Assembly (NCBI GenBank): GCA_021613535.1
Contig: CP075497.1
Span: forward strand, 310,001 to 374,000
Direction of reading: 5' to 3'
Length of the DNA stretch: 64,000 bases
Source: Adineta vaga
Lineage: Eukaryota > Animalia > Rotifera
The notes below the pieces were generated by a model, which was given only the letters and a program-made list of their open reading frames with translations, did not search any database and was not told where the DNA came from. Below are positions 5,509 to 56,484 of the stretch, in pieces (the stretch's first letter is position 1; every line of letters begins with the position of its first letter). Both the position numbers and the translations under genes were made by a program.

Positions 5509-7718
5509 ATGAGTTACCTATCCCATACATTGCTCATTCGATTTAATGTCATTTATATTCATAATTACATATTAAACGTGTCTTTTTTTCTTTTATTCCC
5601 CACTATCTCATTCTATTATTTTCACTTATTTATTATTCAGATATGAAATCTCCATTGATAGAAAACCAAATGGCTGATAATGAAGAGCAACAATTAACAA
5701 TGACAAACAAAATCGAAAATAACGATAATCATATGAAAACAAATAGTTACATACCATATACAATTGATATGACAGTAATGAATAATAATAATGATGAAGA
5801 TCAATGTAAAACAATACGTCCTTGTCGAATAATTGATTTAACTGATAAAATATTAAAAGATAAGATAAGTAATTCAATATCAACATCATTTGATCCAATA
5901 ATTGGATATGGAGAAGAATCTCTTTTATCACTTCGTGAATCATGTCAATCACTTATTAATATTATTTATAATATATCATATTATGTTGAAATAGCACTTA
6001 ATAATACTTCATCTAAACCATCTGATGGATTAACAATTGATGAAAGTGCTTCTATTCGTCTTTATACAATGGAATGGGGTAAAGGTAATCAAAGTCTTTA
6101 TTTTATGCTTAATCGTGCACTTAATAATCCAAATCGAGAATATCTTCAACCTTATATGAAATATCTTAAATTATTATTAACTGCATTAGTTAAATTACCT
6201 TGTATGTCACCATTAACAATATGGAGAGGAGTTACTGAAGATTTAAGTAAAGAATTTTTACCTGGTTCATTAATAACATGGTGGGCATTTTCATCATGTA
6301 CAACAGAATTAACTGTTCTTGAAAATAATATTTATTTGGGTAAAAATGGTAATCGAACATTATTTTCAATTGAAACAATTAATTGTCGAACAATTCGTTC
6401 ACATTCAGATTTTATAACTGAAGATGAAGTTATTCTTTTACCAGGAACACAAATGATTGTACAATCACAATTTATGCCAGCTATTGATCTTCATATTATT
6501 CATTTAAAACAAATTATACCTCAAGATATTTTATTAGAACCACCATTTCAAGGTATTTTATTAAAATCAAATATTATTTCTTTTTCTTTATTTCATTTCT
6601 TTCAAATATTTAGGTGCAAATTTTTATCCTGAACCTAAGTAAATTATTAATTTAATTTTTTCTTTTTTTCTTATTTAATCTATTTTATATTTAGAAAACG
6701 TTCGTGGTATCGAAAGAAAACATTTCAGATTCCAATTTGTTTATTTGCAATGTTAATCATTGCTGCAATCATTATTGCTTCGGTTCTTGGAACAAGATTG
6801 GGTAATAGCGAAAATGGTACGATGTTTTTCTTTTTATGAATTGTATTGAATTGAGAAGTTTAAGACATTTGATTTTCCAAGAATCTTTCTCGTCATAATA
6901 ATATGAAAATTTAAATCATTTTTCTTTTCTATACAATAGATACTACTATCAATTGGAAAGGTGGTATGTGGGCTTTTTCGTGTGATTTTCCTGGTATAAA
7001 TACGAATATTGTCCCATCTGAATCATCGTTATGTGGAGAGAAATGTCAAAAAGATTCAAATTGTACACATTTTACGTGGACTAATGAAAACGGTGGTACT
7101 TGTTTTATGAAAGGAGGAAATGTAACGAAACAAGATGCATTCTTCAAAAATGATCCAACTATGATCTGTGGTGTAGCATATCTTAATGATTATGTAATGA
7201 AAAATCAAACTGTAAATTGGGAAGGAAACGATTGGGCTTATGCTTGTGATTTTCCTGATAATACTTTTTCAGATATATTAAGTATAGCAAATGATTGTGG
7301 TGTATTATGTTCTCAAACTCCACCGTGTTCTCATTTTACATGGAGTAAATATAATGGTGGTACATGTTTTATGAAAAAGGGTAATACGACAAAACAAGAT
7401 GCAGTCGTCACTAATGATCAGGGTATGGTCTGTGGTGTTGTACCGACAATTAATATTACGATATCAAATGAAACTATTCAATGGAAAGAAAACAACACAG
7501 CGAATTCATGTGACTTTCATAATAATGATCTTTCAAGCGTTCGAAGTGTAGTAACAGACTGTATTGGATTATGTTCTAAAACTCTATCTTGTACTCATTT
7601 CACGTGGAATTATCATGATGGTGGTACATGTTTTATGAAACAAGGAAATGTATCAAAGAATGATGCATTTTATACAAGTGATCCCACTATGATGTGTGGT
7701 ATTTTACTTTTTCTATAA
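5509..7718 (+). CDS. Type II membrane ADP-ribosyltransferase (ART-TM-3x PAN/apple), copy A
   Basis: Exons 5509-5512 (tentative; an alternative ATG is at 5643), 5641-6552, 6614-6638, 6695-6816, 6940-7718, phases consistent. R-S-E motifs WRGV / FSSCT / EDEV; basic stretch KKRSWYRKK then TM IPICLFAMLIIAAIIIASVLG; three CDFxxN..C..C....CTHFTW...GGTCFMK repeats. Confidence 0.85.
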
Positions 7719-7806
7719 AATATTTTATCACTAAAATGTTTTTGTGTATTTTATTCGATAATAAAAGTTTAATTAAATATTTTTACATGATATAAAAGAA
7801 AATAAA

Positions 7807-10085
7807 CTATATTAAACCACATATCATATTTAAATCATTAGTAGCGATTGCATCTTGTTTGGTCATATTACCCTTTTTCATAAAACATGTACCACCATTG
7901 TATTTATTCCATATGAAATGAGAACACGGAGGTGTTGTAGAACATATTCCAGCACAATCAGTTCCTATACTTATGATATTCGATATATCATTACCAGGAA
8001 AATCACATCCAATTGCTTGATTATTTTTTTGCCAATCTAAAGTTTTATTTGTTATCATGTAATCGAACGTATATGCTATACCGCAGATCATAGTTGGATC
8101 ATTTTTGAAGAATGCATCTTCTCTCGTCACATTTCCTCCTTTCATAAAACAGGTACCACCATTTATCTCAGTCCATGTAAAATGTGTACAATTTCGATTA
8201 TCGTAACATTTACCACCACAAGTTGGTGCAGAAGTTGAAACATTTGATATATCATTGCCATTGAAATCACATGAGTAAGCCCAATTTCTATCATCCCATC
8301 TGATTGTAGTATCAACTAAAGTTTTAAAAAAATTAGTGTGAAGCTGACACCACGAATTCAAATGAGTTCGAACTCCTTGAACAATACATTGCCACAGGTC
8401 GGGAACTACGTGAGGGTGTAGAGAATAGCTGTGTGAGCGCTACAACGCATCCTCCGACCTCCGGCAACATAATTTTCAGAAGTTCGAACTCGATTTGAAT
8501 TCGTGGTACTAGCTCAAGAAAAACTTTGTATATCTCGAGAAAAGAAACTATTCCAATATTTAACTCAAAAATATCTTACTTATTTTCTTCTTTTTAGATT
8601 TTGTTCCAAGAACCGAAGCAATAATGATTGCAGCAATGATTAACATTGCAAATAAACAAATTGGAATCTGAAATGTTTTCTTTCGATACCACGAACGTTT
8701 TCTAAATATAAAATAGATTAAATAAGAAAAAAAGAAAAAATTAAATTAATAATTTACTTAGGTTCAGGATAAAAATTTGCACCTAAATATTTGAAAGAAA
8801 TGAAATAACGGAAAAGAAATAATATTTGATTAATAAAATACCTTCAAATGGTGGTTCTAATAAGATTTCTTGAGGTATAATTTGTTTTAAATGAATAATA
8901 TGAAGATCAATAGCTGGCATAAATTGTGATTGTACAATCATTTGTGTTCCTGGTAAAAGAATAACTTCATCTTCAGTTATAAAATCCGAATGTGAACGAA
9001 TTGTTCGACAATTAATTGTTTCAATTGAAAATAATGTTCGATTACCATTTTTACCCAAATAAATATTATTTTCAAGAACAGTTAATTCTGTTGTACATGA
9101 TGAAAATGCCCACCATGTTATTAATGAACCAGGTAAAAATTCTTTACTTAAATCTTCAGTAACTCCTCTCCATATTGTTAATGGTGACATACAAGGTAAT
9201 TTAACTAATGCAGTTAATAATAATTTAAGATATTTCATATAAGGTTGAAGATATTCTCGATTTGGATTATTAAGTGCACGATTAAGCATAAAATAAAGAC
9301 TTTGATTACCTTTACCCCATTCCATTGTATAAAGACGAATAGAAGCACTTTCATCAATTGTTAATCCATCAGATGGTTTAGATGAAGTATTATTAAGTGC
9401 TATTTCAACATAATATGATATATTATAAATAATATTAATAAGTGATTGACATGATTCACGAAGTGATAAAACAGATTCTTCTCCATATCCAATTATTGGA
9501 TCAAATGATGTTGATATTGAATTACTTATCTTATCTTTTAATATTTTATCAGTTAAATCAATTATTCGACAAGGACGTATTGTTTTACATTGATCTTCAT
9601 CATTATTATTATTCATTACTGTCATATCAATTGTATATGGTATGTAATTTGTATTCGTTACATCTGTATTATTTTGTTCAATGAGATTCTGTTCCATTGA
9701 CGGAATTTTCGTTGCTGAAAAAGAAAAGTAAAATAATTTTATATTTAAATGATTTTTTAACATTTCTTTATCGTAATAGGAAAAAGACTTAAAATCTTTA
9801 TTTGAATCAATAAGAAAATGAGAAATACATTTGAATAGGACAAGTTGAGGTTATTGAGTTTAACTTCTTATTTTCAAAAATATTAAAGGTTATTTTTTGA
9901 CTTTTAATTCAATTTCTTTTCAGTGTTATATAAAATCGAAAATTTGTTTTAAAAAAATTCAATTATAAGAACAATTACCTTTGAAATAATCTGCAATGAA
10001 AACGAAAAAAAGATACGTTTATAGTTTAATTATAAATCTAAATGAGAACAAATCAATTGATGAATGTATTGGATAAGTTACTCAT
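7807..10085 (-). CDS. Type II membrane ADP-ribosyltransferase (ART-TM-2x PAN/apple), copy B, inverted paralog of A
   Basis: ORF 8783-9763 is nearly identical to the copy A ART; the TM exon near 8580-8701 matches A; the PAN exon near 7807-8315 has two repeats. 5' micro-exons ATGA (10085-10082) and ATTATTTCAAAG (~9990-9979) give MNYFKATKIPSMEQ. Confidence 0.85.
8342..8514. mobile_element. Hairpin MITE-like insertion in an intron of ART copy B
   Basis: About 60-bp imperfect inverted arms (agctgacaccacgaattcaaatgagttcgaact... / ...agttcgaactcgatttgaattcgtggtactagct); absent from the equivalent intron of copy A. Confidence 0.7.
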
Positions 10086-12414: not shown

Positions 12415-13303
12415 CTCGTTGATTGTCGAATACAGCAACGAATAAATCGTTTATATGCATTTCTTTCTTCGTTCTTTTTATATAACGTTGGAAAAAACCA
12501 ACTTTCGATTCAGTATTTGATCTCGTACGATGACGTTATTTGTATTTCTTCGTATGATGCAATTCGTAATGTAAATATTTGTAATTAATATTTATCTGAT
12601 TACATATATTATAAAATAATTTTCTTTGAATTAATTTTGAAGAGATCCATTGAAAAATAATAGTTAAAATTAAGAAAATATGTTATTAAATAATAATGTA
12701 ATTATATATAAACAAATTGATGATAAACATTTATGAAAATAAATATTATTATTTAATTTACTTTTACATATCTAAATAGATTAAATAAAAATCAATAGAA
12801 AATATTTAAAAGAATTAAATAAATAAATTGATGAAAATTAAATTGAGAAAATGGTTTTTTTTTATGAACATTTGATTCGTCATATCCTGGATAATGATAA
12901 GTTGCAGATAAGTCACGAGATTTATGATGAAATATTTGTATTACATAGATATGATATGTATTATCGTCTTTCTTTAATTCTTATAATCAAATTAGTATTT
13001 TTAAAGCAGAGATCAATGAATTTGATCTGATATTTATTCGTAGATAATTGATAAATGTATTCATTCAATCTATTTTAATATTTTGTTACTCAATATTAAA
13101 AAACTAAAGATTTCTCTCTTTTTCAAATCATTAATATATTTATTAATCGTTTCTTTAGACATTATACAAAGATCATTTAATTCGAAAATGAGCTATTGTT
13201 CCATTATTAGAAAATATCTTCTATCTCATACACTTTTTTACATTATACATAACTTGTGGATAAAATCCGAAGTCTCCGTATTTATGATTGTCTATATATA
13301 TAT

Positions 13304-16300
13304 GAGCTAATTGCAAGTTTATTGTACCGTTGTATTTTTGAACGTAAAATTTCAATATCTCGAGTTCTACTCAACCAATCCTCTTGATTTTTTTATCATA
13401 TGCTCTACTAAGTAATTACAATCATCACTGAAAAAATCACTAAATTATCTTGGACCAGTCCTGAGATATTGGCTGCGCAACGTTCAAAAGTCCGATTTAT
13501 GCTGCCATCTTTCGGAGGAAAAGCTGTATGGTCAAGTGATTATGTGTCATTTGAACTTGACAGTTGGTGATATTTTTAATACTCAATCTACACTTCTCAA
13601 ATATGAAACTTGTTGATTCTTTCGATGTAGTTTTTCTTATAATTCCATCGCAATATCATGTGTACATGCAACTCTCTATTTTCGGTCACGCGAGATTAAA
13701 ACTCATTTTGCTACTCAGTGGTCCGCTCAAAACTAATCAGACTGGTGTCAAACGAAAGGCAGTTGATACTATATGAAACCACTACACACTATAAAAGAAT
13801 TGTCCTACTTCTTGTTAATAAAATATCTAAACTAAAATTCAAAAAGTCGAGTGACATACAAAATGTCACGCGAGATTCATCAATTTTTTTGGAGCACAGT
13901 TCTATTATACTACGCCAGAACACAACCAAACTTTCACCATTTTGACTACTCATTGTGGTCGATATCTGGTAAAAATATAAGAATCAGAAGACTTCTCTAT
14001 CGTGCGAAAGACGGAAAAGATTGTGAATATGTCACGCGAGATTTTTTTCAGAAATTTGTCACGCGAGATCTTTACGCATTTAATTACCTCATACATAAGT
14101 TTGGAACGAATGCTTTATATATGACTTAGTACCATATGTAAAGAGCTACGACGGGATATATGAGCTGACTCTACTTTGAATTTGACAGATGGGGAAAGTT
14201 ACAGGAAAACGTTAACGGGTATGCATACCTATTAATTATTCGCTTATTTTCAATTTTTAGAGTATAAATACATACATACAAATATATTTAAAATAGAATA
14301 CGCCGCTTTATTCTCTCGTCTAAACGAATTATGGTTTCTCCTGAGCATATTCAACGTTACAACTTGAAATACCGACAAAAACTTCAGCACCGACGAGCAA
14401 TATCGAAATCTTTTGACCTTCATTTTAAAGCGAAACAAAATGCAAGACAAAGAAAGTGTCGACAACAGAAAAAAGAAACTCAGAAAAAGGTAGCAACTGC
14501 TTCTGCATCTCCATCAAACAAAATAACCTCACGAAAGACCGAAGGAGCTAAACGTCGTCGAGTCAATGCCAGGAAATCGAAAAATCAAACTAAAAAATTA
14601 CTGAAAAAAGTTCAACAACTACAGAAAGAGAATCTGGTGACCAAAAGATTATTATCTAAACAACATTCAGCAAAAATGAAGAGTGTTAATACAACACCAG
14701 CTACATCACCAACACGTTTGTTCATTAATAATATTAGTCCATCAGCCAAGACACGTGCAACCAAACGATTACTTTCTGAAAAAGAAAATTTATCTCGTGG
14801 TTCTGTTTCAAAATTAAGAAAAATAGGTGTAAATTTATCCAACAATTACAATCCACCGTCTAATACACCATCAGCACTCCAAAAAGATATCGAAGACTTT
14901 CTATGTCAAGATGACATTAGTAAACAAGAACCTGATAAGAAAAAACAATTGCACGGAAAACAGATTAGATATCTATTGAACCATTTATCGACTATTCATC
15001 AACGATTTGTAACAGAAACTGGTAACAACTGTCATTACTCAACATTCACACGATATATTCCAGATTTTGTGGTAAAACCAAACGCCAATGATTGGGGTAC
15101 TTGCTTGTGTGTCACCTGTCTTAATCCTCAAATGAAGTTTGAAAAATTACAAAATTTAAAATCTCGATATTCAATTGTAAAATCAGTACTTATCGATGGT
15201 TTAACAGATATAACAGAGCTGGTTACAGATGAAATTAAAACAAAAGATTTCAAGAGTAATTTAGCAATACTCAAAGATGAACGATTCACTATAACATACA
15301 GTGAATGGATTAAGAAGAAGAACGACGAATCTAATATCTTGATCTCAACAAAAACAACGGTCACTTCATCTATTGCAGATTTTGTGGACAAATTCACAAA
15401 TGAAATCGAGGTATGCATGTAGAGTCATATTAGAAAGAAGGAAAACAATAGAGCGAAATTTGAAATTATCACAACTACAAGCATTCGCATTGTATGAGCG
15501 AAGCTCTTGAAAAGGGAAATATTTCAGTGTTCTTTTTACTATGAAGGCAATGATGATTTTTTTGTGTTCGTAGAATTTAACACATCATGTTGATCGAATG
15601 CGTCAACAATATCGAGCAGCAAAGAGTGCAAGACAAATGGCAATCGAAGAAGACGATGTTGTTACTATTCATTTAGATTGGTCCGAGAATTTTAACTTGA
15701 AGCAAGCACGTCCAGATAAAGGTAAATAACTGGGTAGTCGATCTTTACTTAAAGATTTAGATATTACAATGCTTAGAATAAAGTTTTCCTTTGCTAATCG
15801 TCGTACAGATTTTGCTATTCCTACGAATTATTATTATTGACAACTAAAGCATGTTTTTTTAGCTTCATATTACTATGAACAACATATATCAATATTAAGT
15901 GGCTATGTATGGAAAAAAGATGATTGTTATAGTTTTGGTTCTGTGTCCGATGATACTAATCATATGTCGGAAGCGGCATGGACAGCATTACAACCGATAT
16001 TGAACAATTTACAGAACAATTCGTCGAAAATTACCAAGTTAAATTTTATATCTGACTCACCTGTTTCTCAGTATCGAAACAAAACCACTTTTTATTTATT
16101 GAAACAATATGCTACGAGTAATGGAATTACGGTGAAATGGATTTACCTGGAAACTGGTCATGGGAAAGGTATTGCTGATGCTATCGGCGCAACTATTAAG
16201 AGATTGATGGATCAAGCTGTAGCATTTCATCCAGATGAATCTTATACAAACGCACTTGATCTGATTAATGATATTAAGAAAAACACGACTATCAAACTTT

Positions 16301-17071
16301 TTACTTATACGAAAAATGAAATTGACTCATTCAAGAAAAGTATACCATTACTGACAACTGTCAAAGGAACAGCATCATTTCACGAAGTCACGCTTAAACC
16401 AGATGGTAAATTTTATGCAAAAGATACTTCTTTTGGTGCTGAGCGATTGCTGAAAGTAGATTTTTAGATAGATATTGATTTTTTAGACTATACACTATTT
16501 CGTTTTATTTTATTTTTGTGAGTGATGTATAGGTGAAAACATAGATTAGTGCTGGCAAAGCTACTTATTTATCTTTTAGTTTTTTATATTAAACTGTATT
16601 ATGTATTTATCCTTGTCATTTTAACTAATAAAACTAGATAACAATTGGGGTCAAAGCATAAATATTGATACTAGAAAGCTTAAATTCATACGTCAAACGC
16701 AGACTATATCACGATTAAGTTCTTTAGGCACTCTATAAGATTTATATTCCGAACAATTCTCACACTAAATATCACATTAGTATACGTCGTTATGCACAGA
16801 AAACCCTTCTATCATATAACCACAAGTACTAACATCATATCCAAAAAAAAAGGATTTTCAATAGATATGCCAAAAACTTATATTTTGCGACTTTTATGCT
16901 ATTAGAAAATCTCTCCTATCTCGACTATTTTAATAGTGATAGTTGGGAAAATTTAATCCTATTCTCTTCTCATGTACTACTATAGAATGCACTATGCATT
17001 ACGTTCAAAATCAGAAATTTTTTTTTGTCGATTTTTTTTATCAAACGGTACAATAAACTTGCAATTAGCTC
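13304..17071 (+). mobile_element. Full-length Sola2-like DNA transposon (3768 bp)
   Basis: Perfect 28-bp TIR GAGCTAATTGCAAGTTTATTGTACCGTT at both ends, ATAT on both flanks within (TA)n, internal transposase. Confidence 0.88.
14331..16467 (+). CDS. DDD transposase (Sola2-like), 3 exons: 14331-15410, 15574-15721, 15863-16467
   Basis: Spliced frame is open. Motifs CLCxxC, LDWSENF, SDDTNH, ISDSPVSQYRNK, ETGHGKGIADAIG. Confidence 0.85.
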
Positions 17072-17490
17072 ATATATATTAACAAAGATCAATCGAAAAT
17101 TTAATCTTCTAAGAAACATATCATATGATTTAAAGTAGAAAAATATTTTTTAATTGTTTATAAAATATCTAATTTTATATTTCTTCTATTGAAATTCATG
17201 TGTCAAGGTTGATATACAAGAAAATAATTAGAACAAGTTAAGAAAAGAAAATTATTAATAGACATTTATTTTATGTTTTAATTATATATTTTTATTAATT
17301 TATATTTTATATAGAGAACAGAAACGAAAGAGAAATTATTTTTATTTTCATACATAGTTTGATTAATTATTTATTGTTTTTATTGATTTAAAACAGTTAT
17401 TTTGTCTATATATATATATATATATGAATAATTGTAATTTAACAAACCAATTTCTCTCATATTCAAGTCTTTTGATATACATTCATAAAA

Positions 17491-22353: not shown

Positions 22354-23016
22354 GATTTTTCAATGTATGAGCTTTATTTTCTTAGTTTTTATTCAACAAG
22401 GTTAATGTTAAATAGAATGAAAACAACAACAACAACTGCGTTGGTTGAGAAAAGAAGAAAAAAAAACAGCGTGAAGAAAAGAAGAAAAACACGCAAAAGA
22501 AAAAGAAGGAAGAAAAATAGTAATTATGTTTCATCATTACAATGCATTTCTTTATGTGAGTACGTTCACGTTAACAATTGTACTGTAGATTTTTATTTAC
22601 TGAACATTTATTTATAATCATTATGTGTATTCAGTAACGACTGATAGATAAAATATCATTGAAAGATATTTGCAGTTCGTTTAAATGACTAAAAGAATAA
22701 ACTAATTTAATAATTATTGACAAAGAACGCTCAGGGTGTGCATGTGAGTGAAGCAGAGATACCATGACTCACATCCACACCCACCCTCAAATTCTTGCTC
22801 GAGACAGAGTCACTTTGAGTATGTAAAACGTGAGTATCATAACAACATTCACATCCATATCATATTCATCTATTTTGTTCTTTGTTTTCTTTTTTCTTCA
22901 TTGGATATATTTTTACATGTCGTGACAAAAATGTACGAAAGGAAAGAAAGAAAATACCAATAGATCATTATTTTTCTCATGTTGTCTTCATTCACTTATT
23001 CGTCACTTCTTCAGAG

Positions 23017-28357: not shown

Positions 28358-30181
28358 TTCTGATTGAAGTCGTCATATAAACAGAAAGAGATCTATGAAA
28401 GATTGAGTTTCCTAATTGTAAAGATCATATCTTATGTCCTGCTCGTTGACAAGTTTTCATCGTATTTTTATTTTGTCAATGTTTGATTGATCTCTCGATG
28501 TTAAATATGGTGTCGTGTATTTGTTTCTTAATACCTAAACATATCTTATTCTACACATCTTTCCTATATTTAATGGACATGTTAACTAGAAAATCATATG
28601 CAAATATTGAATCAAATTGCCACGATATATTAATAGACTTCTACTAGATTACCTAAATAGTCAGATAGTAAGAAGATATCTGACAGTGTTAAAGATCAAC
28701 TTTTCTTGTATCATCTAAGGATGATCTCTTCGTCGACGTTCATCGTTATCTAAAGTTGAGTTTTCTCATAGTATAAAGCATCAATTTAATTTCATGTCGT
28801 CTGATATAAATAAAATGTCTCATCTAATTTGTTTCCGCTTTCTGCAGTTTTATGACAGTATAACAGAATCATTGAGCAGGGTTGTTATTATTGAACTATG
28901 TCACATATATTATCAGATACATCGTCTGTAGAAATAAGGCGGCATATGCATTGAAAACGTGGCAAAAAGAAAAGTGTCGAATCTATGAAAATTCAATAAT
29001 AAGTCCATATGTTGCTCGAATAATGCATTTCATTTTCCACTTGCGATATGAGCAAAGATAAAGTAGCCAATAATTCGTCAATGTAGATGTGGTTGTTGTT
29101 ATAACAATTCATAAGATTATCGATTCGATTTTGAATACCATTAGTAGAGTTTGATTTTGGTCGGTGTGTGGCACCTGTGCTAATTTACACATACAGGTGT
29201 TGCAATCGGCTTTTCTCACTAACAATGACCACTCATCGAAAGAAAATGATTTTTCGAAAACAAAATAGATCAAAATGTTGAGCGTCGATCCCTTTATCAC
29301 GGAAAAAAAGAATAAGATTGTGGGCCATTTTCTGAGAACTTTTGAAAATGGTGATCAAATTCGGACAGAATGTTCTACACCACTTTTATTGAGTAGTTAA
29401 AGCGATTTGGTTTGATTTTTCTTTCAAATTGAAATATAAAGAATTTGTATTCAACTTATTCATTTGTATGCGTTAATTAGAAAAGAAAAGATGTATTTTA
29501 TTCATCGTATAAAAGTATAGAATTATCATTATTGTAAAAGAGAAAAGAAATAAATATGAGGATATGGGTGTGAGTGGGTGTGAATGTGAAAAAGAGGAGA
29601 TACCGACACCCAAACCACCCACCAACACCCTATGTAACTCGATTGATTTTCGAAGAAGTGTTTATAATATCTCAATAAATATTAAATGCGGATAGTTATG
29701 CATAAAAACTTTCTCTAAACACGTGCAGAGGCGCAGAACAACACCTTTTAATACAAGCATTTTAAAAACTAGGATGGGTATGGGTGTGGTTTGGGTGTGG
29801 ATATCTCCTCTTCTTTCACACCCACACCCACACCCTCGTTCTCAGAGTACGTTGCGGAGAAAAGCGTGTCATTCATTTGATTATAATAGAGAAACTTGTA
29901 TTGTCTTTAAATATTTCGTCAGTCGTGTGTCATATCTTAAGCAAATAGATTTTTATGGTATGTATCTTACTTTATTCTACTCTTTATTCACATCGTTCTT
30001 TTAAGAAATATTTGATAAATATCATCGTCGACAAACACATACTGTAAAAATAATCGAAAGATTTTATTTGAAACTACTATCGTAAACGTTTGCAATTTCT
30101 TATCAAACAATTAAAGTATACTGGTAAGATACTGCACACACATCATCATCATTTTTATCTTTATATTTAATATAATTGTAA

Positions 30182-32907
30182 ATGGCACGAGTAAGTAACT
30201 CTGTGTTTTCTTTGATGAATGTAATTTCGAGTTATTTCACCTTAGAAATCGCTACCGATGTATTTTCGTGCATATGGCTTTCCGTGTGCTATTGATGCTG
30301 GTCCAGAGCATAATGAAAAAGTTGATAATACGTGGATGTCAGAAGATGTTGATTTAATTACAGAGTTCCTCGTTCAACGCGATGCTAAAATGGGCATGGA
30401 ACGAAAAGATTTGAGTGAAGAACATCAAAAGCTTCAAGAAGGCAATCCGTATTTCCCTGCATCGGCGACTTTCGATACCTATCCAGAAATCGAAGCTACT
30501 ATTCCAGAGTCTCTCGATTTCAAAGTAACAGGACCAAGACTATTACTTGCCGTCGATAAACAGCAGAACAACAACTCGAAGTTGCAAATATTCACAGATA
30601 ACTGTATAGTGTTTCTGTACCTCACAGGCCATGGTATGTCGCAAACATTGGCCCAAAAACTTGGTAAGCTTGAAGAAGACGACAGTGTTAAACTTGAACT
30701 TCCAAAGTACACGAAATATCCTGTAGTACAGAAGAGCACCTATGATAAGAGAAAACAGCTGAAAGGTGGCGAAATACTTGCATACAAATCATTCTTGAGC
30801 CTCAACGATTTTTACAGCGAATTCTTCCTTGGAATGCAGATGGAAGAGATTAAAAATCTCCATCTCATTATCGTAGCAGATTCATGTCATTCTGGACATT
30901 GGGAACGGTTCAGCAAAACTGATGCAATTATTTTCGATCCCGATGCTGATCTTTCCATAACTGTTCAAACAGCGAGCGAAATGGATACTCCATCTCATGG
31001 ATATTATTTCACTCCATTGTTTATCAACTTCCAAAACTTACAGCAGCAGGAACTCGATATTCTTGAAGATAAGTTCAAGTCGTTGACTGCAAAAGAAAGA
31101 GATCAGCTTCTTAAAGATGTACCAGTGCAGCAGTTCCCAACATTCACCCATGGTCGAACAGATGTATCCTTAATTTCGAAGAATAACAGGTAAGAACTTA
31201 TTTGATAATTCAGTTCCCACTGTTTAGATAGAGATCCAAGAGACTAAATTTCTTTTTGAACATAGACTCAGCCGGGTATATGTCCAAATTGTGTTTGCAT
31301 TAATATCTGACATCTTCTATTTATATATTGAGTAAATGAATACTTAATTTTTAGCAAGTACAATTGAAAAGTTCATTAATTTGTTTTCTGGTTTTTTGAC
31401 TTGATTTTATTTTTGATGTAGTTAAGAATTTCTAAAGGTTACAGAAGTAAATTCCAACAAGCAATGTTGAAACGTTAGACAGTCACCTATATTGATGTGT
31501 TTCAGGTCTTATATTTTCACATCCATCATTAAATGAAATTCGAGTATAGAATTAAGTGTAAAGATGGAGCTAAGTCTGGTTTCAAGTTTGAATTTGAATA
31601 AACCCACAGCTCACTATGATCGCAAAAGAACAAAGTTTTTACGAACGCAAAGTCGATGTGAAAATAAAAAAATTTCTACCATTCGAAATTAGACAAAAAG
31701 TATTGTTGTTGGCTGCTACAAAGAAGAACTGAAAAGTTGTAGGAGTAGAGAATAGAAGTATATTCGTCTCCTCTCGTCTACCTTTTCTTAATCTTTTACT
31801 TTGTTAGATTAGTAATTACTTCGAATTTGTTTTCTTGAGTAACTTTTAGAATTTCATATTTGAAAGGTCTCATATTTTTTCTGAATCAGAAAAATTCGTA
31901 TGAATGCGAGTTCCAAAGCACACTAATAACATTCTGCTATTTTCTAGGCGTCCAGAAGAAGGAAATCATTTTCGTATAATAGATCCGTCGACGGAACTCG
32001 CAGGAAAACTGTATCTTACAATACATAAGCTACGTTTCTTTGTTGATAAATGGTTTTTTGCTTTCTTCGCTAAGCTTTATTACAATGAAAATTGGCTTGG
32101 GATCGATGTATCAAGTTTAACAAGACCAATTCTTAGGGGAAGTAACGCTAAATCGTTTATCAAGAACTTGATTAAAGAAAGAAGAAAGAAACTAGTTATC
32201 AAAGGTATGAAACTGACAATGTATGATGACGATGGACGGCTGGCCGTACCTACTCCTGCGTGTATTGTTGCATTGAAATCAAAACATGATTTTGCTGATA
32301 AAGCTGGACCAGAGAAAGAACATGAATGTTGGTATCAATTGCATGTTCATTATGATGGTCAGAATGAGTTTCCAGGTGAAATTACACATTTGAAAGTGTA
32401 TTATGCGAAGTATTGTTGTGTAAACAACAAAGAGCGCGCCAAAGGTGAGTGATCTACACATACTCAAATGAGATTGACACTCTGGATCAAAGCAGCTAAT
32501 AGAGAACAACTTGTATCGTTTTTTTTTGCTGATTGTCTTTGAAAAAAGTTCTTTATGCTATAAGAAAATTAACTATTCATTTAATAGGCTTCACGGAAGG
32601 ATCGTGTGATGATCTGAATGACGTGAATGAAGTCAAAGCAGAAGCTGGAAAACCGGTGAACAATGGAGGTAAACATCCACATCAAACTGACTATTATTTG
32701 GAAGGATGGCAGGAGTACAAAGAATCAATACGAACTACGTTGGAACAATGGGGTCGAAACCAAATAAAGGAAATGCAAATGGATTCAAACAGGGTGGTCG
32801 AACTGCCCATAAATGCTTGGCAAGATAAAACTCAGTGGAAGAAAGAGGATTCTGTTCAGTTAGGCAACATCGTAGCCGTACGAAAGTGTCGGTTTTTACT
32901 CACCTAG
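30182..32907 (+). CDS. Caspase-fold (clan CD, metacaspase-like) protease with an unknown C-terminal region; exons 30182-30190, 30246-31189, 31948-32444, 32588-32907
   Basis: FLYLTGHG and IIVADSCHSG dyad motifs; three GT-AG introns with matching phases 0/2/1. Confidence 0.75.
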
Positions 32908-33787: not shown

Positions 33788-33870
33788 ATCTTGAGAGTGC
33801 ATGTGGATGATAGCACTGAAGTGTGACTCACATACACACCCACGCCCAAACCTACCCACACCCTCAAGAT
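33788..33870. repeat. Representative copy of a dispersed telomere-like hairpin repeat (about 15 copies in the window)
   Basis: ATCTTGAG..GT-rich arm..spacer..CACACCCAC..CCCTCAAGAT; other copies are listed in the findings. Confidence 0.75.
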
Positions 33871-42706: not shown

Positions 42707-43209
42707 ATTGACAAAGATTTATATATAAACATTATTCTACTTATACTTTAAAAAAAAGACTATTCAATATACTATTGATTTCTTTTTTCTTTTTTTAACA
42801 ATAAAACATTATATTCTTGAGGGTGTGAGTAAGGATGGTTCTTATTGATTATTCATTCTCACCCACACCCTTCAACATTGATATGATAGTATGGTGAAGT
42901 TTCGTCATCACTTTATGTCAGTCGTTTTTTGCCCATACACAGGCTCATATTGTAGCAATGGTAATAAACCATTGTGAGGGTGGATGAGAGCGACGGCGAA
43001 TAAGAGATAACTACGACCTAGAAAAAGAATACAATTGTCTACTTCTATAGTTCAATAATTCTGTTAATCCATTCTTCACAAAAGCTTGGTTAAATCGTAT
43101 AAATCGAGTATTTCAGGCAAAATGAAAATATAGAGAAAAGCATGGATATCAATATAATTAAAATAGTTTAGCAAATGAGAATAAAAGATTATTATTCGCA
43201 CAATTTCTA

Positions 43210-44940: not shown

Positions 44941-45660
44941 GTGTAGATGAGAGTATAGAGCTCACACTTACATCCACGCCCTCCCTATACCTTAAGACTT
45001 CTGAAATGTGCCTTGGCAAGTACAAAATCATGATTACGTTAGCTTCATTTATCCTCACATCCTCAAACAAATCATTATATACACACAAGGACACTCGTTA
45101 AAGAAAGAAGCTAACAACTTATTTTGATCTTTTAATGTCCCCATTCAATTTTTCTCGTTTGTGTTTTGTCTTCCTGTCATTTTTGTTACTTAGAGCATCA
45201 TATTGTGTTTTCATTTCTGTTTGGCTCCATGTATTTCTTCAATACTTTTCTTACACAATCATTGCTGTATTTTACTCTTATTATATGCATCGGTCACTTT
45301 TATTTCTTCTTCTCATATTCCTATTGCTGTAGGACGCATTGATGACATTAGGGTGGGTGTGGGTATTATTATTCAGCCACATCCCACACCCTGAAAACTG
45401 CTATGCGCCTGCGTAAAAATCACTAATAAGTCAAGCATCGGTTGCATATGATCGGAGCAATAGATCATATTACATAATTGAAACAAGTGTGAGATGGGTG
45501 AAGGTGTCTATCCTCTCTTACGTCTCACTCACGCGCACAGCCACTATGTATATAATTTTATGCCTTTGTTCTAAAATAGACATAATACACAATGAGGAAA
45601 AATAAATGCAAAAATAGACGATTTATTATGAGGTATCCACTGTAGTATTTATTTTGATGA

Positions 45661-48838: not shown

Positions 48839-49281
48839 CGTACAATGTAGGAATTTCAATGTATTCTGTCGTATACATTAATAAAATGAAAGTTTGATTT
48901 TCAGCCGACGACTGCATTCAATTTTATGTTGTAAGCAAGAAGAAGAAAGACAGCGTATAATTATACATATTGAGGGTTTCCTAAGAATGGAGTATTGTAC
49001 ACTACAGACTAATATAAAAGTTTCTTATGTATGTAAATATAAGGTTTATTTTTTTTAATTAAATCGAATTTTCTATCAAAAGAACTGAAGAAAAGTACAT
49101 CCCCAAGAGTGTACGTTTTAAGAATGTTGTCAGAAGACACTTCCTTTTGAAAAATAGACTTCTATGTCAATCGTTCCTTCATTCAGAATAGAAGCTATAT
49201 CGATCTTGAGGGTGTGGATGTGAAGTATCTTTATTGTTTTCTACTACACTCACGCTCACACCCACCCTAGAAATCAAATCT

Positions 49282-52200
49282 TTATTTTAAAATATATGAT
49301 GCTCTTTTACTCATATATTTAATAGCGAGAGTTTTCATAAGTTCAATGAATTCTTGATTATGTTCTTGTATTTCATTGTGTGCCAGTTCGTGACATATAA
49401 CCATGTAGTAAAAATTGACAATATTCTGAACAATAAAATTTGATGGAGTTGGATTTTGTTGAAAACTAGTAAATTTTTTCGCATAGACTTGTTCGAAATA
49501 ACGAAGATTAAAGAAAAGAGAACCATTATTATTGAAAGCAATACGATCTGTCAAAACGAAAATCGAAGAATAGATTTATTTAATATCTCATATCTACTTA
49601 CTTCCATTAATATCTCGAAAAAGATGAAAAATATTAACGGGTAGTTCAAATACATGTTGTGCAAGATTATTTAGAACCCATGCGAGTTGTTCAGCTTGTT
49701 TAAGCATATCTTTTGTGATAGTTGCATTTTGTTCAATAAAAAGAGGAATTGAATAAAACATTTTTTTATAACGTTTTCCTGTAATAGCGGATTTTTCTAT
49801 ACATTGATATTCGATACGTTGTTGAACATTTTCTGTTTGACTCAGCAGTTGATCGGTATAACTCTGACACTCACGAATCATATTCTGTATCCACTCGTCG
49901 TCATCTCGATGTAAAGATTCAAAATCATCAATACGATGATCACGATTAAATCGTTCTTTTGTTGATATCTGACGAAAATTATCAGTAGATTTCACGTCAG
50001 GTTTTTGTTCACATTGTGAATCTAAAATCAATTCTTTTTAAATCCAATACACATATAATCTTTATATTTACCATTGTTTCTTGATTTTTGTACTTTATTA
50101 GATGAATTATCTTTATTGATATTACCTTGTGAACGATTCTCAATCACAGGTTTATCTGTTTCCATTTTTGGCGATAGAATTTCATTATCTCTATACGATG
50201 CAGAGGGTGTTGACGACATGTTATCATCGATCAACTGATCCACAGGCACATTACGTCGTTTTAGTTGCGCTAATGACAAAAAAAGTTTATCTTTTAATAT
50301 AGAAATTTGTTCATCCGATGGTTTTCGAAATACAAATTGAGCAAATACAGTTGCAATATGAAAATATTCAATTTCATGTTCATCTTCTTGTAAATATAGA
50401 ATTACGTTGTCGTCATTGGCAACAATTGAACAAAACATACTTTCATTTCGCTATAATATATATATGAAAGTTTTATAAATAAAATTAAGAATATAATCTT
50501 AATTACATCAAGTATAATCGTTTTCTCTTGAAATGTTAATTCAGATCGTATATTATCGTTTTCATAAATTAATAAATTTTTTTCTAAAAGCTTAAAATGA
50601 GTTGTATTAATATCCAATAATCGCTCACACTATATGAAAATGAGAAGAAATCAGTTTTTCTTTCTTTTAATCAAATAACCTACGTGATTATTAACGAATA
50701 AAATTGGAAAACGATGAGAAATTAATTCTTGTAATTTTTCACATCGATTCGATTGACTTGTTTTACCTAAAAAATTGATTAAATTTCTGAATCTATTCAA
50801 CTCTTTGTTAAAGATAAACTTACCAATTGGAAAAGATGTTTCTTTAACATAATTCGATATCCAAGGTGCTCCAAAATTTTCATATAAATTTTGAATTTCA
50901 ACAATATATGGTGCACATAATAATTGAAATTTTCTTACACAAAGAGAATGATCATCTAGAAAAACATCACATGACTTCACAATTTCGAATGTCTCGTGTT
51001 TACTATCAATTTTCTTATATCCAAGACACCAAGGTTCATTAGATAATCGATGCTTTAGAGTTGTTGTCAATTTTGATATATCCACTGCAAGTTTTTTCAA
51101 GCAATTTATATAAAACTCGATTTTATCGGATAAAATTTCCTTATTATCGTAAGAACTACGAAAATAATTTTGTTGTCGATCCAGAATAATCTGAGCAAGT
51201 ATTAATGGTGATGGTGAATAAGAAACACCAATTTTCTTTAGAAAACAATTTCCTTCTTTTCCAAAATTAACATAATCAATTAATCCATTTGTATTGTGAT
51301 CATTATTTATCGAATTATCTGAATAAATAAAAACTTCATATGGTTTTTTCCATAAATTATTTCCTAAAGAAAAAAAAAAAAAGAAGAAAATGTTTTGTTT
51401 AATAAAAAGAAACTTTTCTATTTAATATAAAACAAACCTTGAATAAAAAGAGGAATAAAATCAATTTGATTAACATATTTATTAAAATGATCATCATTTT
51501 GTTGATAAATTTGATTAAAATAACTAAAAAGTTTAATTAATATTTCATTTATTAATAAAAATTCATTTTTTCTTTTTAAAAATAAATCAAAAATAAAATG
51601 AATTGTTGGTGATGATTTTATATTAAATATTGATTTATTTAATGAATATTTATTTAATAATTCAATTACTTGAGATAATAAAATATTACATAATGGATTA
51701 TTATCTTAAAAATAATATAAAATAAAGAAATATTTATTAAATTTACAATTTACCTATATAAACTTCAATTGTTTTTGATAAAATAATTTCATATTTATTA
51801 TTAATTAGATTTAGTGAAGAACGTGATGGAAGAAATGAATAATTTTCATAAGATTTTGTCCATAATTTTGAATAATATTCAGAAAAATATTTAATAAAAT
51901 AAATAAATGATAAAGATAATTTATATTTCGATTCATTTGTTTTTTCTTCAACACATTTTTCATTATGTTCTTGAGTAATTCGATGAAATAATAATTCTAA
52001 ATCAACAAATTCACGAACACCTAATTCTTTAAGAAATAAATATTCTTTGGAATTTAATTTTATATTAAGCCAATCAATTATTGGTAATTCACAACAATTT
52101 AATTCATTTTTAACACATGGAAAATAAAGTTCTTGTGGAACATATCGACGAGTTGTTGTTCCCGTTGAATTAGATACCGTTCCTATTCTCAGAAAATGAA

Positions 52201-55200
52201 ATATTGAAATTAAAGGTGATGATACTTTTATGTACATCCTTATCCTAAAGAGTATATACTAACCTTGAAGCCATCTATTTCGTTTCAAAGCATCAAAATC
52301 TGCATCAGTCATATTCTCCCGTTCTTTGATTAATCTTTGAATTAATATTTCCATTGTTTCATTGAATGATAAAGTTTGAGATTCAATAAATGATTGTAAA
52401 TGAAAAGTACGACATCCAATTCGTTTAAGAAATTCAATTGAAACGAAATCTTGTTGAATGATATTGAATTCAATAATTGGAATATCAGATGATGAAAGAA
52501 TTGTTGATGGAATATATGATTCATCAGGTATTCTTATACCACGTGTTGTTTGTATACATTTAATATCAGATAAAATTAATTTTATTTTATTCCATTCTGA
52601 TTCTTGAAATAGATTTGATTGTTTTGAAAGAAAACTAAGTAATTGTTCATTAGCACGTAAATGATAAAATATATATCCTTGATTTGGATGTAAATAATAA
52701 TCAATTATCTCGATAATTGACCATGGAGTTAATTTTAATTTTCTTTGAAGTTCTTCTCTTGAAAAATGAATAACAATATTATTTGATAAAATATATTGTG
52801 GAAGTTTAAGAAGTGATGGAATATTAAATAAATCATAATATTTTAAGTTTTTAACTAATATTATATTTGATTGAATTGTTTCTTGAAATCGAACAAGAGA
52901 AAGAATACGTTGAGACCATTCATTAGTTATTTCATTTCTAGATAAATAATGAATTAATTGAATAAATTCTTTAAGTGTAAGAATAGAAATGGATTCGGAA
53001 AGTTTATGTTCAATTAATTGATAATCAACATATTTTATTAATCCACGTTGATGAAAACATCTAAGAAAATCATTTTGACATAATTCAAATGAAACAAGAG
53101 GAATTCGAAGAAATAAATCGATATATGGAGAAGAAGATAAATATGCATTTTTAAACAAATGTATACGTAAACGAGAGTCTGTTGTTGAAGTAATCACAGG
53201 TACAAAAAGTTTTGATTCATTAATGAAGAATGCTGATTGAATTGTATCACATAAAAATAAGAAATATATATGTATATGTTATGTATATTTTGATATATTT
53301 CATACTGATCTCATTGTTTAGTACAGAAGATTGAAATTGAAATGGAGAAATTGAAAGAAATGCTTCTTGTTTTGTTTTGATAGATGTACTATTAGTTATC
53401 ATTTGATCATAAATAAATCGAACAATTTGTCCAGTTGACAAAAGTAATTCTTTATTCCATTGTGAAATATATGAATCTTGAAAATTAAGATTTTCACGTT
53501 CGATTGTTGGTATAAAATGACTGAAAATATGCATTCCAATGCCTGTTGTTTGTTGTGTTCCAAGACCAATAAATATATAACCTTGAAATATATTAATCAT
53601 TAATATTATAATTGAAAACAAAAGCAATAGTTAACTAACCAGTAGGAATTATTTTTTCTTTACAGAATTTGATTGGTAAAATGGATTTGAAAATTGTATT
53701 ATCGATTTCAAGATCTGTTGATGATTGAATTTGTTTAATTACCTATGAAATGGAAAGATATGAAAATATTAAACGAAACAGAAATCAAATGTACAGAGTT
53801 GGGTGTATATAAAAGTTCAATATGAATTGTATTTAGTAAATCTTTCTTTAGAATGTGTCGAATTTGTTGATGAAATTCTTTATTAATTATTACAGATGCT
53901 TTTATAGAAATATGATTTAAAGTAATAGAAGGACCATCAGTAATTGTGAATGTTTGTTCGTTTTGAACAATTGAATCAAAACGAAATAAATGGTTCAAGG
54001 ATTTTTTTACATCAAAATCCACTATAGTCATCGGTAAGATTTGACGTGTTTTAGTCTTGCGAATTTCAAATACGTTTTTATCATTGATTTTAATAACAAG
54101 TTCATTAATATGCTTAGTAAATGAAAGTACTAAAATCAAAAAAAATATATACAGAAGATATATAATATGAGAATTGTTATTTTTAACCTTTTGTGAAATA
54201 ACTTTTCAGTTGAGGTAAATTCATAGTTAAGAAAGTTTCAGTTTGCTCGGTAATTGGATGATTCAATAAAATATATTTTTTGTTTAAAGATAAACAAATT
54301 GAAGTCGGATGTGGTTGTTTCTCAACAGGTAAACTACGAATACATGTTTTCAAAACTTTATCATCTTGCCAAGTAAAGGTCATCAATTTTGTCCCCGAAA
54401 TAATGATTGGTTCTTCACAAAGTGAAAACACAGAGAAAAATCCAACACCAAACTGACCAACTGAATCAACGTCCGTATTTCCTTCTGCAATAGTAGCTAC
54501 GCGATTCCAATCGATTTCACTAAAATCACGTCCATTGTTAGTTGCACAAATTTCTGTAATACAACTATTATGAAAATCCATCTCTAAGAAAATAAACAAC
54601 GATTCGATTGATAAAATTATATGATCGACATCCTCACTCCAAAATTCTTCGGGTATTACTACTTTACGCTAACACCACACACACCCAACTTTTCGAGATG
54701 GCATGTTGGTCACTCCTACTAACACCCACAACTCGATGAGTTATGCTCACTAACACCCCCTTTCTTAACCTTTTAAGAGAAGTAAACCCCTGACAAACTC
54801 GAAAAAATCACCTTCTTCAACGCTAACACCCAATAACTCTCTTATAGTCCACACAAACATCCAAACTAGTCTAAACTAACACCCACACAATTGAAAAATC
54901 TACATTTTTGAAAGCAAACGTCGTGTGCTCCCATTGAGTTTTAGGGATCTGGGTGAACATCTGGGTGGAATTCTTAAGGGTCTCAAATTAGTGCGCGAAA
55001 GTAGACCAGAATTTTCCCATTTCTTTCTATGATATACACCCTCACTCATGAGGCTGAAAGGGTACAAAGCTTATGAAATATGTTGATATGAGTCTGTATG
55101 AATATGTGTGGGTGTGGGTGAAGATAGGGATTGACTTGTTCATATTAAGCGAAGGATGAGTTTGGTAGCGAGTAAGCGTTAATGCACTTTAGGACATCAT

Positions 55201-55813
55201 AGAAAGAAATGGGAAAGTTCTGGTCTACTTTCGCGCACTAATTTGAGACCCTTAAGAATTCCACCCAGATGTTCACCCAGGTCCCTAAAACTCAATGGGA
55301 GGACACCACGTGTGCTTTCAAAAATGTAGATTTTTCAATTCTGTGGGTGTTAGTTTAGACTAGTTTGGATGTTTGTGTGGACTATAAGAGAGTTATGGGG
55401 CGTTAGTGTTGAAGAAGGTGATTTTTTCGAGTTTGTCAGGGGTTTACTTCTCTTAAAAGGTTAAGAAAGGGGGTGTTAGTAGCAGTGACCAGCATGCCAT
55501 CTCGAAAAGTTGGGTGTGTGTGGTGTTAGCATAAATTAGTAATACCCAAATTCTTCTTACCCGACATATCACTTGAACATCGTTCAACATTGTCGGATGT
55601 TGAACAAGTAATTTCGAAATGAAATCATGTCGCTCCAGCATCGTCGGCATTTTGAATAAGTTCTCGACAGACAACAAATTCGGACGAATAACGAGCGAGC
55701 ATTTTGTCAATTAAATTTCGTATATTAACTCGAACCACGGCCTTTTTCCCACCATTTTGTACTGTCGCTCGAATAGTATCCGCTGATGGGAACGGTACGG
55801 AACTGGTTGCCAT
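49282..55813 (-). pseudogene. GHKL ATPase + DUF3684-like + C-terminal HExxH protein, multi-exon, with an in-frame TGA in exon 1
   Basis: VRVNIRNLIDKMLARYSSEFVVCRELIQNADDA, TNNG, IAEGNTDVDSVGQFGVGFFSVFS, GLGTQQTTGIGMHIFSHFIPTIERE, IAFNNNGSLFFNLRYF, ICHELAHN. TGA at 55627-55625, after which the frame continues to a phase-matched donor. Confidence 0.78.
54651..55547. mobile_element. Foldback / Mutator-like non-autonomous element in intron 1 of the GHKL gene
   Basis: About 350-380-bp inverted arms (54651-~55033 and ~55196-55547) starting GGGTATTACT; 9-bp TSD AAATTCTTC (54642-54650 and 55548-55556). Confidence 0.88.
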
Positions 55814-56484
55814 ATTTTGATATACTATATATTCTAAAAAAAAATAAATACAAAACTTATCGACGTGGCAGTACTTTGTGAAACAATTTTCACTGCTGAG
55901 TGAAACTTTCCAACATAAATCATTAAATGAATTTTTTTCTTCTCCAATATATATACAAACAATAGTTATTGTCATAAGAGAAGACGGAAGAGAATAGAAA
56001 AACAACAAACAATCGCATCAAGAAGAATGAGAATTAAAACGAATAGAAAGAAATAATAGAGACGAAAAAATTTTGCATTCAAGTTATTCGTGGGTGGATG
56101 AGTAACACAAATTGCGCAGTACTGTCGATTTGAAGGTGCACACATGAGTGAAGAGAACAAACACAGGCATATGCCAATATACATTCAACCCAAGGAGGAA
56201 AGAGTGGAATCCTAAATTGCAGGATTTGATGATTTCCATCAATTTTGAAAAATATCATAGAGAAAATCCATCTTGAGGGTGTGGGTGTGACATACTACTA
56301 TCATCCTCACCCTCAACCACATCTTTTCAATAGAAGCAAGTGTCTGTCAATAATCATATACTGAACAATTATAACGATCGATATCTTTCTTTATTTCTCT
56401 ATTAAAATAATCGATGATATGACATAAGTGATTTATAAATAAAGATGTCTGAATTCGATCGTGTTTCGCGTATGAATGTGATTA

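Follow-up and report, generated by a model that had tools for sequence, protein, structure and literature searches.

A candidate two-domain clan CD protease family with members in bdelloid rotifers and a coral

Metacaspases are generally stated to be absent from animals (PMC4357240; PMC3417536; PMC6426788), the generally accepted animal complement being caspases and paracaspases (PMC4357240). Bdelloid rotifers are the published exception, explained by gene transfer. Nowell and colleagues counted 101 PF00656 proteins in Adineta vaga and 69 in A. ricciae, many of them flagged as having a bacterial or fungal origin, and one infection-induced bdelloid gene matches a fungal metacaspase (PMC11258130). 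A gene in a 64,000-nucleotide stretch of the A. vaga genome (the window; contig CP075497.1, positions 310,001 to 374,000) raises the question of what kind of protease such motifs denote in an animal, and where it came from. A preliminary description of the locus reported a metacaspase-like gene in an animal. The metacaspase-like features are present, but such genes had already been published for bdelloids (PMC11258130), which removes the headline surprise.

The gene lies on the forward strand at positions 30182-32907, and its features are collected in Table 1. The FLYLTGHG and DSCHSG motifs start at 30612 and 30879 in a common forward frame, within a single stop-free stretch of 315 codons. Four exons, separated by three GT-AG introns of 55, 758, and 143 nt, encode 589 residues with no internal stop. 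This product (P0004) is identical to the NCBI entry 'hypothetical protein I4U23_027383 [Adineta vaga]', from a 13.9-Mb contig. Runs X10 and X11, from one sample, gave contigs that join all three introns, and introns 2 and 3 were cleanly joined in run X9, from a separate study. Contigs of run X18 contained no splice joint. As the library type of these four runs is unrecorded, the RNA evidence consists of the spliced joints themselves. Transcript contigs also extended past exon 4, to 32968. This is a genuine gene, and the bdelloid rotifer transcribes and splices it.

The motifs and introns of the preliminary description were thereby confirmed, in one frame and with GT-AG joints in transcript-type contigs from two studies. 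Its estimate of about 270 unrecognized residues after DSCHSG fits the size of the unrecognized part, which is the last ~270-285 residues, but not its position: 369 residues follow DSCHSG, and the first ~85 of these belong to the protease fold. P0004 has neither a signal peptide nor a hydrophobic stretch (best 19-residue Kyte-Doolittle mean, 0.99). Neighboring genes in the window are eukaryotic and animal-like, and include a nuclear-receptor zinc finger, ubiquitin, FG-GAP, PAN, ART, aldo-keto reductase, GH45, and tRNA-Glu.

Table 1. Features of the protease gene and telomere-like units of the window (window positions).
Feature	Position	Strand	Description
Exon 1	30182..30190	+	Met-Ala-Arg; transcript contigs extend upstream to 30024
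Exon 2	30246..31189	+	Residues 4-317; whole predicted clan CD protease domain (~5-305)
D30-x6-D37 motif	30324..30347	+	S1-pocket loop/helix of clan CD, placed by profile alignment
His132, GHG motif	30630..30632	+	Predicted catalytic residue, from conservation and profile alignment
Asp215-Ser-Cys217	30879..30887	+	Predicted S1 Asp and catalytic Cys, each in 34/34 rows
Exon 3	31948..32444	+	Residues 318-483; variable linker, then start of C-terminal domain (K406, P421, H450, H452)
H450-x-H452 motif	32342..32350	+	C-terminal domain; H450 in 30/31 and H452 in 31/31 rows
Exon 4	32588..32907	+	Residues 484-589 and stop; remainder of C-terminal domain (W561, W567, R585)
Telomere-like units	22734-22784, 29565-29630, 29781-29835, 33790-33869, 42821-42870, 45353-45391, 49210-49265		

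Relatives of P0004 were found only by exhaustive comparison. Word-index searches of 5.8 billion proteins returned P0004 itself or no match, while index-free phmmer against 1.84 billion representatives retrieved 41 proteins at E ≤ 0.001 and seven at E ≤ 1e-30 (P0004 included in both). Because the family surfaced only with the index-free search, the word-index blanks reflect low sensitivity. Members are ~15-40% identical to P0004 over aligned positions. Among the 30 of 40 non-self members that were looked up, five carried organism names, all animal, and none a prokaryote name. The named bdelloid members are from Rotaria socialis, R. sordida (two proteins), and Adineta steineri, and one member shares a cluster with a pair of neighboring gene models from the coral Desmophyllum pertusum, which lie on a 10.7-Mb scaffold. 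In the D. pertusum annotation the two domains form these two adjacent models (P0069 and P0070), whereas P0037 and P0071, from the same cluster, are single chains; the coral arrangement reflects either a split made in annotation or a frameshift.

In an L-INS-i alignment, the His/Cys dyad and H452 were present together in 24 of the 41 proteins. Eight had the protease part only, seven the C-terminal part only, and two neither part in full, with one-part and incomplete records being mostly short. As both parts co-occur across the family, the partner domain is a constant family part rather than a rotifer appendage. Three members bear extra domains (P0028, P0038, and P0009, with ankyrin repeats, a MYND finger, and a FAF1/UAS-like region); the FAF1/UAS-like addition may be a gene-model fusion.

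The predicted protease domain holds the catalytic motifs at its most conserved columns. Asp30 was found in 28 of 28 alignment rows and Asp37 in 31 of 32. Around the candidate catalytic histidine, Gly131, His132, and Gly133 were present in 33/34, 34/35, and 32/35 rows, respectively, with one row probably being a misaligned fragment. Asp215 and Cys217 occupied all 34 rows having a residue there, and Gly178 (35/35), Gln244 (35/35), and Pro301 (34/34) were likewise invariant. Ser219-Gly220, Gly255, and Phe258-Thr-Pro260 were also among the best conserved columns. In a family whose members share only ~15-40% identity with P0004, conservation of the motifs at this level is more than chance. FLYLTGHG and IIVADSC fit the clan CD order, in which His and then Cys end two hydrophobic strands, with Gly beside the His.

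Homology was assessed against an alignment of 27 bacterial PF00656 domains, which as a check was itself able to retrieve GSU0716, Yca1, AtMC4, TbMCA2, MALT1, and caspases from the PDB. The family profile matched the bacterial set by HHalign (97.3%, E 2e-11), and global alignment of residues 1-310, at 98.7% over 217 columns, brought Asp37, GHG, DxC, the TxQ strand, G..FT, and Q.P into register. A reversed profile gave 0.37%, and 30 column shuffles scored at most 16.6 vs 89.9 for the real profile. Asp37 shared a column with the 'ND' Asp found in bacterial C14 domains and AtMC4. Residues 241-303, the p10-like region, were in register within the whole-domain alignment; alone they gave only 4% probability (E 0.01).

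Comparisons with the PDB, the Atlas, and NCBIfam agreed with this placement. In the PDB, AtMC4 was the best match, or among the best, for three of four family profiles, at weak E values of 0.044, 0.014, and 0.0048; the fourth profile gave no such match. PF00656 was carried by 27 of the 30 nearest Atlas clusters (score 0.91), with 120 of 256 shared features, below the typical same-family level. The NCBIfam bacterial caspase model NF047832 was weakly matched by 32 of 49 aligned members (E ≤ 0.1). P0004 alone matched no caspase model in Pfam, NCBIfam, PHROGs, PADLOC, or the PDB, and exon 2 translated alone matched Peptidase_C13 in Pfam at E 0.067. AlphaFold2 runs on single sequences without an alignment returned pLDDT values of 31.9 and 29.9. 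Matches to catalase, dehydroquinate synthase, and importin were partial and weak, did not recur across profiles, and were rejected. From the global profile alignment and the near-invariant dyad, we predict with high confidence a clan CD fold, as the preliminary description had proposed, with an intact His132/Cys217 dyad.

Residues predicted to line the S1 pocket point to the likely specificity of the enzyme. The TbMCA2 pocket contains Asp95, on helix 1, and Asp211, which precedes the catalytic Cys by two residues. At the equivalent positions MALT1 is also acidic, caspases have Arg and Gln, and legumain has Arg-His (PMC4357240). The acidic helix-1 residue and the acidic residue two before Cys define the basic-P1 pockets of TbMCA2 and MALT1 (PMC4357240). 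The family has Asp37 and Asp215 at the places of TbMCA2 Asp95 and Asp211, in register with bacterial C14 and AtMC4, together with Asp30, an additional invariant Asp in the same loop as Asp37. Because both pocket residues are acidic and the Arg-His pair is absent, a basic P1 residue (Arg/Lys) is predicted, and we regard this as probable. Legumains also have a helix-1 Asp, so Asp37 alone cannot fix specificity. The pocket would be metacaspase-like rather than caspase-like, as first described, given Asp37 in 31 of 32 rows, Asp215 in 34 of 34, and no helix-1 Arg. The acidic S1 pair is nonetheless common to paracaspases and is not diagnostic of metacaspases.

The C-terminal domain is the second constant part of the family. 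Conservation over residues ~340-589 included Phe349, Phe354, Phe355, Lys406-Leu407, Pro421, Trp561, Trp567 (28/30), Arg585 (25/27), and the two histidines of the HxH motif. The domain had no match in any library searched (Pfam, NCBIfam, PHROGs, PADLOC, and PDB), even with family profiles, and an Atlas search with residues 315-589 gave no usable match. HHalign of this part against bacterial C14 gave 0.13%. The unrecognized partner domain of the preliminary description is upheld by these results and by the presence of both parts in 24 of 41 members. As possible readings of the HxH domain, HIT, JAB, cupin, and cystatin-like folds came into consideration; none is claimed.

Docking of residues 1-310 with residues 322-589 was predicted with a score of 0.59, compared to 0.20 for the best control. 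Of 78 solved pairs 51 reached the docking mark, as did 2 of 108 mismatched pairs, and passes at ≤0.60 comprised five of the 78 solved pairs and all four mismatches that passed. A pass at 0.59 is of a kind more often wrong than right. The runs, which did not use the family alignment, agreed in at least 39% of contacts with a partner pLDDT of at least 31, and the partner fold is uncertain. The model lends weak support to docking of the C-terminal domain on the protease domain.

Our preferred explanation, which we hold with slightly more belief than doubt, is an unnamed two-domain family of Arg/Lys-directed clan CD His-Cys proteases, in which the C-terminal HxH domain would dock on the protease domain and gate it until a cut or signal. 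The protein would be a single-chain zymogen, presumably cytosolic because it has no hydrophobic signal or membrane stretch. The HxH domain would pack on the protease and keep it in check, and signal binding, or a cut in the variable linker (~305-345), would free the active site. The linker of P0004 contains Arg and Lys, and self-cleavage there may be the switch; the linker showed no conserved site for such a cut. Once freed, the enzyme would cut after Arg/Lys without needing calcium. Self-inhibition by C- or N-terminal parts is common in clan CD (PMC4357240). The released HxH domain might itself be an effector, as has been suggested for bacterial EACC1 caspase fusions (PMC7159879).

That last possibility can be taken further: the HxH domain may be the working part, a metal-binding or enzymatic effector (e.g. 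a nuclease or hydrolase) that the protease only releases by self-cleavage. His450, His452, Lys406, Pro421, Trp567, and Arg585 are conserved like the protease core, a pattern more suggestive of an active site than of a cap, and the C-terminal effectors of EACC1-type caspases are thought to be released by autoproteolysis (PMC7159879). In contrast, the effectors of conflict systems vary, while this domain is constant in the family; it is matched by no library, and the EACC1-associated model NF047832 gives only 15-26 bits against a cut-off of 140. We consider this reading unlikely as the whole account, although it is compatible with the gated-protease explanation and not exclusive of it.

For the gated protease, a role in stress or immune signaling is a tentative suggestion that we doubt somewhat more than we believe. 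Involvement in defence or cell death is a guess based on the family context; a fungal pathogen failed to induce most of the caspase-domain genes of bdelloids (PMC11258130).

The origin of the gene bears on whether it belongs to the described bdelloid expansion of C14 genes. It could be a highly diverged metacaspase or orthocaspase acquired horizontally as part of that expansion, with the partner domain from the same microbial donor. The setting is favorable: many of the 101 PF00656 proteins in A. vaga and the 69 in A. ricciae are flagged as foreign and are highly divergent (PMC11258130), transfer candidates make up ~8.3% of A. vaga genes (PMC8494291), and other genes in the window look foreign. 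The GC3 of the gene (0.36) lies at the top of the range set by 14 other window ORFs (0.05-0.35).

The family tree comprised 36 members (five short fragments omitted), was unrooted, and had organism labels on six rows, all animal. The named rotifer proteins and eight others formed one clade (99/99), and the coral lay apart in a clade of 11 rows (100/99). As drawn from the midpoint, the tree does not make the rotifer and coral clades sisters, and the rotifer clade includes three proteins of GC-rich type (P0014, P0015, and P0031; GARP/FYMINK 1.29-1.44 vs 0.51-0.72 for the five named rotifer proteins), both of which favor acquisition. Yet these three are long branches nested within the rotifer clade.

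Several observations weigh against acquisition with the C14 expansion, and no donor was identified. Searched with the family profile, 401 Bacteroidota genomes (a sample of one phylum) yielded no two-domain member, nine of them holding short motif-only matches, and tblastn of phage and plasmid records found no relative. Exact-pattern scans of viral and JGI metagenome contigs also found none, although these scans missed known JGI family proteins. A single pattern match in a genome contig was rejected as chance, lying on the strand opposite an unrelated ORF. No member passes the PF00656 cut-off, none of the 30 looked-up members bears a prokaryote name (five having an organism named), and the coral member sits on a 10.7-Mb scaffold. 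The horizontal acquisition first proposed for this gene gained no firm support, as the family extends to a coral genome and no prokaryotic member was seen. We judge acquisition with the C14 expansion rather improbable.

Transfer in the bdelloid lineage is still plausible, and vertical descent with many losses or transfer among eukaryotes may also explain the distribution. Vertical descent with losses has been argued for most animal Tiamat genes, which have a similar spread among aquatic invertebrates (preprint 10.64898/2026.09.30.754977). It is possible, though in our view doubtful, that this is an overlooked clan CD family native to invertebrates of aquatic habitats, corals and rotifers at either end of their range, and perhaps to microbial eukaryotes, acting in immunity or cell death as an Arg/Lys-specific, calcium-independent switch that unleashes an HxH effector by self-cleavage.

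Telomere-like units flank the gene, two upstream and one downstream. Each is a G-rich arm followed by a C-rich arm of the rotifer telomere repeat, TGTGGG (PMC8494291), and several have matching ends. These units occur throughout the window (Table 1) and provide no evidence of transfer of the gene.

Comparison with named clan CD families places this one between them. Metacaspases and orthocaspases (C14B; TbMCA2, Yca1, AtMC4, and GSU0716) share its motif order (helix-1 Asp, hhxxGHG, hhxDxCxSG), small-residue strand, G..FT, Q.P, acidic pocket positions, and intact dyad. Unlike them, the family has an invariant Asp30, Gly178, and Gln244 and a constant C-terminal HxH domain, occurs in animals, and falls below the curated PF00656 (Peptidase_C14) cut-off in all 41 members (best E 0.012). 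Its His-to-Cys spacing (71-104 residues, median 88) is ~35 residues longer than that of the 27 bacterial domains (37-70, median 53). The four-Asp calcium site (TbMCA2 D173, D189, D190, and D220) is not conserved: by alignment-based mapping, no more than 10 of 35 rows have Asp at positions 188-191, and 7-11 of 34 have it at positions 224-225. The calcium-site DD pair is itself kept in only 12-13 of the 27 bacterial C14 domains. A plain metacaspase is thus contradicted by the failed PF00656 test, the spacing, and the calcium site.

Caspase C14A features are also absent, with Asp rather than Gln two before Cys in 34 of 34 rows and no Arg on helix 1. The paracaspase MALT1, an Arg-specific C14B protease of animals, resembles the family in its acidic S1 residues on helix 1 and two before Cys and in the C-terminal domain that follows (PMC4357240). 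It differs in that no death or Ig domain was matched by Pfam in the 41 proteins, although their C-terminal domain may bear a remote likeness to one, and MALT1 was absent from the PDB matches of every family profile at E ≤ 10. Bacterial EACC1-associated caspases (NF047832; PMC7159879) similarly fuse an N-terminal caspase-type domain to a C-terminal one. In our family the C-terminal domain is constant rather than variable, the A. vaga gene is eukaryotic with introns, and scores are far below cut-off: among 17 members scanned, 14 reached 15-26 bits and three had no match, nor did P0004. Ordinary Bacteroidota caspase domains score up to 131 bits on this model.

The C13 family offers a further candidate identity, a legumain/GPI8-like transpeptidase or Asn/small-residue protease with its C-terminal domain serving as an activation cap like that of legumain. 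The likeness includes the CxSG motif, the conserved Gly178 strand, a short distance from Cys to the next strand (24-40 residues, median 29), and an extra C-terminal domain, a known regulatory feature of legumain (PMC4357240). Peptidase_C13 was also the commonest Pfam match, in nine of 41 members at E ≤ 0.07; three marginally exceeded the PF01650 cut-off of 22.8 (23.0-26.2 bits over ~50-70 profile positions), with P0004 below it. Such weak matches are also given by ordinary bacterial C14 domains, however, and the family profile scores bacterial C13-match and C14 proteins alike (best 25.7 and 24.6 bits). None of the 32 rows that reach Asp37 has the Arg-His pair ahead of the helix-1 Asp, Asp replaces Glu two before Cys in 34 of 34, and P0004 lacks a signal peptide, making a C13 enzyme improbable. 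By their own tests the family would belong to none of the named clan CD families, although it would work most like C14B.

The notion that the motifs match only by chance, or that the gene is a contaminant or mis-prediction, draws on P0004 alone matching no caspase model and on a partial phmmer match to Prp31 (E 4e-4, residues 78-159), but it is largely refuted and highly improbable given spliced joints from two studies, a 13.9-Mb contig, homologues in three further bdelloid species, a near-invariant dyad, and a collinear, controlled profile match. Prp31 identity was rejected, as the match disappeared with family profiles.

Other features of the window were observed in passing. A multi-exon gene on the reverse strand (~49600-56020) has a Sacsin-type GHL ATPase domain (PF25794, 54183-54665) and likely encodes a Tiamat/Sacsin-like protein, as reported for rotifers (preprint 10.64898/2026.09.30.754977). 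Apparently inside it, at 54651-55547, is a MITE-like inverted repeat with telomere-like repeats and arms of 290 nt (96.6%) and 77 nt (94.8%). A recent inverted duplication at 5747-9647 contains a pair of ADP-ribosyltransferase-like ORFs, with 99% identity across 1052 nt, that enclose two convergent PAN-repeat ORFs (82% alike). Inverted repeats of 44 nt (95%) at 13288-17085 bracket ORFs 14292-15422 and 15841-16467, which have no Pfam match, and likely delimit a DNA transposon.

What is new relative to the bdelloid Peptidase_C14 expansion (PMC11258130; preprint 10.1101/2021.09.04.458992) appears to be the family itself, unnamed, profile-evading, and common to rotifers and a coral, with a conserved HxH partner. 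Both concern divergent, non-metazoan-looking caspase-fold genes in the same animal group, whose origin was called obscure. The expansion is defined by a PF00656 match, which P0004 lacks, and the present family has a coral member and its own partner domain. In the open literature, with most subscription journals outside its scope, we found no account of the two-domain family or the coral member. Since no member passes PF00656, P0004 is probably not among the 101 proteins counted in A. vaga, and a family invisible to the standard caspase model would be missed in caspase-gene counts. Were it merely another transferred gene of the known expansion, its interest would be modest. If active, the family would add a clan CD member to the animal protease set, together with a new conserved domain bearing an enzyme-like HxH motif.
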